A stretch of DNA of 64,000 nt from Escherichia coli (lineage in GTDB: Bacteria; Pseudomonadota; Gammaproteobacteria; Enterobacterales; Enterobacteriaceae), in NCBI RefSeq assembly GCF_009931435.1, contig NZ_CP043414.1; one strand, written 5' to 3'. Numbering within the stretch: position 1 is the stretch's first letter; every line of letters begins with the position of its first letter. Of the stretch, positions 1,169-2,125 are shown one piece after another. The notes under the pieces are model-generated. The model ran no database searches. It was not told the origin of the DNA and was given only the letters and a program-made list of their open reading frames with translations. A program made the position numbers and the translations under genes.

Positions 1169-2125
1169 TTAGTACTCGATCCATGGATCACGCTTGCTTT
1201 CAGGCAAGGGCTGATCTAATGCCTGCATTTGCTCTGCCGAAAGTCCGGTATATCGTTGTATCCATTCAGGATCGGCCCCATTCTGCAACAACAATCGGAG
1301 GAGGCTCCGTTCCCCTTCTACTTTCCCTTCTTTCCTCCCCCTCTCCCTTCCCAACAGCCATCCATCATTATGAATTCGCTCTGCAATTGTCATTATTCGC
1401 TCCCTGTGGTGTGGCATTCGCCTGGTAAGTTCGCTGATAAACGCCTTAAAACGCGCTTCATCGCCAGTCAGTAAAATGTAATTTAACAGCGCAGTTATCT
1501 GGCTGTCATTAGCGCACCCTGTAACCAGTAATACTACCAGTTGATCAATAAGCCCCATTAGATCGCGCTGGCGAATATGCTTTTGGATCAACTCCAACAG
1601 GGCGACTCTGCGATGCTGCACAATCTCGTCATCCGGCACGATAGTGATATCCACCAGCGGGAACGCGGCGTTATAAAGCTTCCGTGCGGTTGTCGGGTCG
1701 GCAAATTCGTCCAGCCAGCACAAAGACCAGGGATAAGGACTACGGCTACCGTGATAAAACAGCATCGGAATGACCAGCGGTAGCGGTCGGCGTTTATCAT
1801 GCTCTATATGGCGCTGCATCACCGCCATGGAATAGCGCATCAGCCGAAAAGCCATGTGAATATCCTCACGGCTCTGATGTTCAATCACCACATAGATATA
1901 GCCATTTCCTTTACGGGTCTTTACCGACCACAGAATATCGGAATGTAGCGCCCGTAATTTTTCATCGACAAAGCTGGCGGATTCCAGTTTTAAGGTGTCG
2001 AGATCGCACAGTTCACGTAAATCTTTAGGTAAATGGATCTCCATAAAATCCCGCGCAGTGTCAGGGTGCGTGAGAAAGGTTTTAAATAATGCATCATGGG
2101 GCGTGCTGGTCGTGAAGTTTGTCAT
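1169..2125 (-). CDS. rpnD: Rpn-family recombination-promoting nuclease (PD-(D/E)XK, transposase_31-like), intact 318 aa
   Basis: Uninterrupted 318-aa ORF; Rpn/YhgA-like sequence; position between yjiR and mdtM corresponds to yjiP/yjiQ. Confidence 0.7.

Follow-up and report, generated by a model that had tools for sequence, protein, structure and literature searches.

An intact rpnD gene between yjiR and mdtM in Escherichia coli: a predicted nuclease toxin with a nested short form, and the amber codon that interrupts its K-12 counterpart

The DNA analysed is one strand of 64,000 nucleotides from Escherichia coli (contig NZ_CP043414.1 of assembly GCF_009931435.1), and this whole stretch is called the window below. 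Positions 1169..2125 of its minus strand form a single open frame, which starts with ATG (seen as CAT at 2123-2125 of the strand presented) and consists of 318 codons followed by TAA (TTA at 1169-1171). An earlier note, made from the letters of the window, had described one 318-aa frame at 1169-2125, and the ORF listing gave exactly these coordinates and this length. The left neighbour is the 3' end of yjiR (7..927, plus strand), and mdtM and then yjiN lie to the right; this order, yjiR - rpn - mdtM - yjiN, is that of the rpnD locus of K-12 MG1655. Two REP-like palindromic elements are found between the convergent yjiR and rpnD, at about 1046-1082 (GCCGGATGCGGCGTGAACGCCTTATC...) and about 1113-1157 (...TGATAAGCGTAGCGCATCAGGC), and the second of them also has a match at an unannotated site of a genome without any other match to the rpnD region.

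The protein matched Pfam PF04754 (Transposase_31, YhgA-like) over residues 8-210 with E=3.8e-87 and 291.6 bits (cut-off 21), covering profile positions 1-202 of 203, and it matched NCBIfam TIGR01784 ('Rpn family recombination-promoting nuclease/putative transposase') with 170.3 bits (cut-off 52.1). These two matches rule out a chance ORF, and 1169..2125 is a genuine gene; on the strength of profile scores above curated thresholds, its 318-aa product can be assigned to the Rpn / YhgA-like family. The equivalog model for RpnA, NF007361, scored 385 bits, below its cut-off of 583, and the gene is therefore not rpnA. Its position between yjiR and mdtM, and an identity that is highest to K-12 rpnD (94% mean column identity in an end-to-end alignment with b4584), mark it as the rpnD (yjiP) orthologue. 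On the basis of the ORF, the two profile matches, synteny and identity to RpnA, we designate the full-length product of 1169..2125 (minus strand) RpnD-L, a putative nuclease toxin. A gene of identical length is annotated as an intact CDS by RefSeq in five sampled strains.

The window was also compared with other genomes on a larger scale. End-to-end alignment of its first 25 kb with E. coli chromosomes reached 98.5% identity at most, and at least 80% of this segment is covered in only 623 genomes; judging by how the best-matching genomes are annotated, it includes an inverse autotransporter gene (iatD) and a pentapeptide-repeat gene. This 25-kb query matched a median of 23 places per genome, and such multiple matches suggest dispersed repeats. 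No RNA family was found in the whole 64-kb window by Rfam at gathering thresholds.

The counterpart in K-12 MG1655 (b4584, 4568998..4569918, 921 bp) is annotated as a pseudogene that was formerly divided into yjiP (b4338) and yjiQ (b4339), and its sequence holds a 103-aa ORF (yjiP) and a 190-aa ORF (yjiQ). The statement in the earlier note that the K-12 counterpart is split into yjiP and yjiQ is thus borne out by both the annotation and the two visible ORFs, and K-12 does not have a single intact gene of the same length at this place. The frameshift that the note had expected in K-12, however, does not exist: pairwise alignment with the window shows a base substitution, C to T at gene nt 310, which converts codon 104 from CAG (Gln) to TAG. 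The starts of the yjiP and yjiQ ORFs (4999 and 5347 of the K-12 locus) are 348 nt, or 116 codons, apart, placing the two ORFs in one frame. When the coding alignment of K-12 and the window was searched for a frameshift, none was found, and the sole indel was an in-frame 36-bp difference. The loss of rpnD in K-12 is an in-frame amber nonsense mutation at codon 104 with no frameshift. This codon, CAG in the window, lies at 1814..1816 (minus strand; coordinates verified by script) and corresponds to 5308-5310 of the K-12 locus. Within the first 732 nt of rpnD (codons 1-244), E. coli B REL606 and K-12 differ only at gene nt 310, and the amber mutation is therefore a recent event on a haplotype common to strain B. 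The glnV44/supE44 suppressor puts Gln at UAG. The ancestral codon is CAG (Gln), and read-through in K-12 strains carrying glnV44/supE44 might restore the exact wild-type residue and yield some full-length RpnD.

We have surveyed codon 104 in 5,426 complete E. coli genomes by megablast, using a 55-mer that has the variant base at its centre. The CAG form was found in 3,791 genomes and the TAG form in 340 (338 of these exact); the two sets are essentially exclusive because the 28-nt megablast seed cannot span the central mismatch. They total 4,131, and the gene region is present at 80% coverage or more in 4,130 genomes. Among the matches listed, nearly all carriers of TAG are K-12 laboratory derivatives or K-12-like strains, including ER1709, DH5a, BW25113, MC4100, HST04, an O16:H48 isolate and USML2. 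From these counts an intact codon 104 is the rule in E. coli; intact rpnD is the majority state and no peculiarity of the copy in the strain analysed. The amber lesion in K-12 and the intact gene as the norm of the species have already been published: Kingston et al. (2015; PMC4498929) reported a complete YjiP in most E. coli and attributed the K-12 stop to a point mutation, and they worked with yjiPc, a synthetic repaired K-12 allele.

Intact alleles occur in several lengths. We have extracted and translated 12 rpnD alleles from sampled strains, and those that were intact encode 318 aa (five strains), 314 aa (two strains) or 306 aa (one strain, WCHEC96200). The last has the K-12 length with CAG at codon 104. 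Its locus (1..1663) is rearranged with retention of the intact rpnD: yjiN directly adjoins rpnD, mdtM is missing, and a 26-aa hypothetical gene is annotated in the usual place of yjiR. When 40 rows were taken at even steps of the match ranking and their length classes were inferred from query span versus record span, about 14 had the length of the window gene, 10 were shorter by 12 nt and 10 by 36 nt; the rest consisted of three of the O157:H7 type, one of the 88-3493 type, one truncated row and one without rpnD.

Even the small sample contains at least four independent inactivations of rpnD, in K-12, O157:H7, 88-3493 and REL606. The pseudogene of strain 88-3493 is a frameshift. In O157:H7 F6294 (358..1315 of its locus, minus strand), the frame is shifted by a 25-bp tandem duplication, ACGATTGCAGAGCGAATTCATAATG, at gene nt 736-785, equivalent to about 1340-1393 of the window; the duplication doubles the RpnS start, so that the long form ends after 260 aa, and from the second ATG a 66-aa RpnS ORF with two repeats runs uninterrupted. 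With this ORF intact despite the frameshift, O157:H7 may retain the antitoxin while the full-length toxin is lost. In REL606 (747..2266 of its locus), an IS1A is inserted right after G255, directly where the repeat tract begins, and it takes away most of the RpnS-coding sequence.

The nuclease domain of the window protein, with a PD-(D/E)XK nuclease core, extends over residues 8-210 (Pfam PF04754; 1496..2104, minus strand). Alignment with K-12 RpnA places D11, D63, E82, Q84, R94 and the PDDE motif at 164-167 in invariant columns, and all of them are kept. Mutations of RpnA at D11, D63 and E82, as well as Q84K, abolish activity, R94 also matters, and the protein becomes hyperactive when D165 of the PDDE motif is mutated (Kingston 2017; PMC5350276). 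Substitutions specific to the lineage of the window protein are few (K72, N74 and G203); RpnA shares the G at 203, and the loop that contains positions 72 and 74 differs in RpnA as well. Over codons 1-244, comparison with five other alleles gave 31-33 synonymous and 9-16 non-synonymous differences, with dS of about 0.22 and dN/dS of 0.075-0.13, values that indicate long-term purifying selection on the nuclease domain of rpnD. Experiments on relatives are also available. Toxicity in recA cells and an increase of about 5-fold in RecA-independent recombination have been reported for the repaired K-12 YjiP (PMC4498929), the repaired K-12 RpnD induces an SOS reporter early (PMC5350276), and purified RpnA is a Mg-dependent, non-specific DNA endonuclease (PMC5350276). 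The earlier note had called the gene uninterrupted and potentially functional as an Rpn-family nuclease; the ORF is indeed intact, and the kept catalytic residues, the low dN/dS and the toxicity of the repaired K-12 protein support 'potentially functional' well. We consider the allele of the window probably functional.

The C-terminal part of the gene should be viewed in the light of Zhong et al. (2023; PMC10400941), who reported a gene-within-gene arrangement for rpn: the long form, RpnL, is a toxic endonuclease, and the C-terminal domain is separately made from an internal start as RpnS, which blocks RpnL. In the helix that both forms share, the number of 4-aa repeats varies; they begin 8-20 residues past the RpnS Met, each combining one hydrophobic residue with charged residues or Gly, and this variation was reported for all E. 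coli RpnS proteins (PMC10400941). The long form of RpnC is neutralised only by a short form with a matching repeat number; neutralisation or protection was shown for RpnA, RpnB, RpnC and RpnP2, the last of which is plasmid-borne and the one case of demonstrated phage defence (Zhong et al., 2023; PMC10400941). All five RpnS proteins were detected in MG1655, together with the long forms of RpnB, RpnC and RpnE only (PMC10400941), and the lack of RpnD-L among these long forms agrees with the prediction from the amber codon 104.

By homology with RpnA-S, we predict an RpnD-S of 74 aa (M245-Y318; 1169..1393, minus strand), a putative antitoxin that shares the reading frame of RpnD-L. In the alignment, M245 falls on the start Met of RpnA-S, which is the 49-aa chain of PDB 7TH0 and begins MTIAER...; pairwise BLASTP between the two short proteins gave E=2e-8, and phmmer against 7TH0 gave E=0.085. 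The Shine-Dalgarno-like AGGGAG at 1400..1405 (minus strand), which is a consensus match only, stands 6 nt upstream of the RpnD-S ATG (ACCACAGGGAGCGAATA-ATG). By analogy with its relatives, RpnD-S would be translated from M245 in this strain. Zhong et al. (2023; PMC10400941) reported that every K-12 rpn gene has an internal transcription start, and about 90 nt upstream of the RpnD-S start, at 1480..1509 (minus strand), a sigma-70-like site (ATGACA-18-TAAATT, with TG) is a weak candidate promoter for a short transcript; the three sigma-70-like sites found in the region are not above the 2.4 expected by chance. Pfam searches of the C-terminal 74 aa with E up to 10 gave noise matches only, with no family and no DUF4351. 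Confidence in the AlphaFold2 model of RpnD-S, built from a 4-sequence alignment, is low (pLDDT 62.5 on average and under 50 in the repeats), and Foldseek with this model ranked the three-helix bundle of 7TH0 (RpnA-S) top at a non-significant E=1.2 (TM 0.36/0.55). PADLOC-DB had no matching model for the gene, a result that is uninformative because its 2023 library appears to be without an Rpn model.

Four imperfect 12-nt/4-aa repeats occupy residues 259-274 (1304..1351, minus strand), as judged from comparison of proteins and alleles. The tract opens 14 residues past the RpnS Met (residue 15 of RpnD-S), inside the 8-20 range of Zhong et al. (2023). Alleles can be arranged in a series: one unit, GEQR, in K-12 and WCHEC96200; two, GREE GEQR, in O157:H7; three, GMEK GKEE GEQR, in the 314-aa alleles; and four in the class of the window. 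The three extra repeats near the C-terminus account for the 36-bp, 12-codon excess over K-12 (318 versus 306). Tandem Repeats Finder (minimum score 30) called none in 1100-2200 because the 12-nt units, mutually identical at only 3-8 of 12 positions in DNA, are too degenerate, and the repeat is visible in protein and allele comparison only.

The two ends of the gene differ greatly in how often they are found elsewhere. The window gene and the rpnD of M24FEP differ at 40 positions in nt 1-612 and at 2 in nt 613-957. Its 5' 612 nt were matched at 99% identity or more in one of 4,241 complete genomes (goat strain R32_14_1F), at 95-99% in 13 and at 90-95% in 4,227; its 3' 225 nt were matched at 99% or more in 741 genomes and at 95-99% in 681 more (about 1,420 at 95% or more). 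This pattern marks the allele as a mosaic, or recombinant, with the join around gene nt 612-935 and thus a breakpoint between about 1190 and 1513 of the window. Sampled alleles of different lineages mostly have 18-48 differences in the first 732 nt. Over the 1.1-kb rpnD region most genomes are 90-95% identical to the window, and mdtM-yjiN is 95-99% identical in 4,725 of 5,381 genomes; polymorphism is higher in rpnD than in its flanks, a pattern compatible with recombination close to the hypervariable hsd/mcr region. We give a low probability to the more specific proposal that a divergent 5' haplotype of the nuclease was joined to the commonest 3' haplotype of a four-repeat RpnS, making the present gene a rare recombinant rpnD. 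If shuffling of the toxin and antitoxin halves were selected, e.g., by phage-encoded inhibitors, rpnD would be modular, with the nuclease half and the pairing helix evolving and being exchanged independently, and the gene would be a natural system for testing repeat number as the setter of toxin-antitoxin specificity.

We regard it as highly likely that the ORF is an intact, ancestral-type rpnD that encodes the RpnD-L nuclease with a nested RpnD-S, i.e., a one-gene toxin-antitoxin pair whose long form K-12 has lost. In RpnD-L, an N-terminal domain (PF04754), a Mg-dependent DNA endonuclease of the PD-(D/E)XK type, would be followed by a short helical domain at the C-terminus. The same frame, by homology with RpnA, would also be translated from M245, with AGGGAG ahead of it, to give the 74-aa RpnD-S, and the short form would bind RpnD-L via the shared helix and block the nuclease activity, the four 4-aa repeats in that helix presumably setting which short form pairs with which long form. 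As for Rpn proteins in general, such a pair would have a likely role in phage defence, and by analogy this allele may be expressed, active and protective against phage. In K-12, the long form was lost by the single CAG-to-TAG change at codon 104.

An open frame can also be left over in a silent or decaying gene that contributes nothing and has merely escaped a disabling mutation in this lineage so far. The gene is certainly dispensable, being absent from about 1,170 of the 5,426 genomes, with the adjoining mdtM-yjiN present in 5,381; the independent inactivations described above (K-12 amber, O157:H7 25-bp duplication, 88-3493 frameshift, REL606 IS1) point in the same direction, and deletion of rpnA-D in K-12 left basal recombination unchanged in a mating assay (PMC5350276). 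Decay of the present allele is nevertheless quite improbable in our judgement. Purifying selection (low dN/dS at dS near 0.22) and catalytic residues that are all intact speak against decay, intact genes are the majority (about 33 of the 40 evenly spaced rows fit the length of an intact allele, 10 of these 33 being in the 306-aa class, which includes the K-12 amber allele), and frequent loss combined with strong constraint where the gene is kept is typical of defence and toxin genes. Older labels such as 'putative transposase', 'Transposase_31' and 'ISNCY' raise another reading, that of a self-moving transposase of a mobile element, which we consider extremely improbable. The Pfam name itself, the presence/absence polymorphism of rpn genes and the top-scoring NCBIfam match, 'ISNCY family transposase' PRK09956 with 397.6 bits, are in its favour, but this score is under the 583-bit cut-off of the model, and NF007418 is under its cut-off. 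The gene occupies one fixed chromosomal locus, the same site between yjiR and mdtM in every strain examined, with a median of one copy per genome, and our search of 900-2600 for inverted or direct repeats of at least 14 nt found none; with no terminal repeats in this range and a fixed locus, the transposon reading was rejected. Zhong et al. (2023; PMC10400941) found neither defined ends nor target-site duplications nor terminal inverted repeats for rpn genes, and RpnA, as noted above, cuts DNA non-specifically.

The remaining question concerns what an active nuclease would be for. Its main role could be that of a recombination-promoting nuclease that aids DNA acquisition beside the hsd/mcr 'immigration control region', and not that of an antiphage module. 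The roughly 5-fold rise in RecA-independent replacement caused by the repaired K-12 RpnD (PMC4498929), the location of rpnD at the proximal border of the hsd/mcr region and the recombinant nature of the present allele itself are in accord with such a role; that rise was, however, obtained on overexpression only, and the deletion cited above did not change basal recombination. The internal antitoxin, the hypervariability of the repeats and the fact that rpn genes are enriched close to defence genes suit defence better (PMC10400941), and we think it unlikely that DNA acquisition is the main role. The two roles are not mutually exclusive.

For annotation, intact rpnD (RpnD-L and, nested within it, RpnD-S) is the label to use for the gene at 1169..2125 in place of 'putative transposase', and the defect of K-12 should be recorded as an amber nonsense mutation at codon 104. 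As K-12 is the exception, functional work on RpnD needs a non-K-12 allele or a repaired one, as in the studies of Kingston et al. The alleles with one, two, three and four repeats form a natural collection suited to the idea of Zhong et al. (2023) that specificity depends on repeat number.

Comparison with known relatives shows which parts of the gene are shared and which are particular to it. K-12 rpnD, including its repaired form yjiPc, resembles the window gene in its yjiR-mdtM locus, domain organisation and internal Met, with about 94% nucleotide identity over codons 1-244; it differs in having TAG in place of CAG at codon 104 and one 4-aa unit (YIK-GEQR-IL) in place of four, and the last 15 or so residues also differ between K-12 (...ERERYSWLKS) and the window protein. 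The common 318-aa RpnD proteins of E. coli (WP_000181178.1, WP_000181112.1 and WP_001593925.1) have the same length and the same four repeats as the window protein; the 3' 225 nt of the window gene are 99.1% identical to these common alleles, whereas its 5' 612 nt belong to a rare haplotype whose differences are mostly synonymous. K-12 RpnA (YhgA) is a paralogue at another locus with 57% full-length identity to the window protein, and it shares the mutationally defined residues, an identical MTIAER internal start motif and TGLS-E in the small domain. The K-12 RpnA-S has 49 aa without the repeat insert, unlike the 74-aa RpnD-S predicted here, which has four repeats and a 13-residue C-terminal extension.
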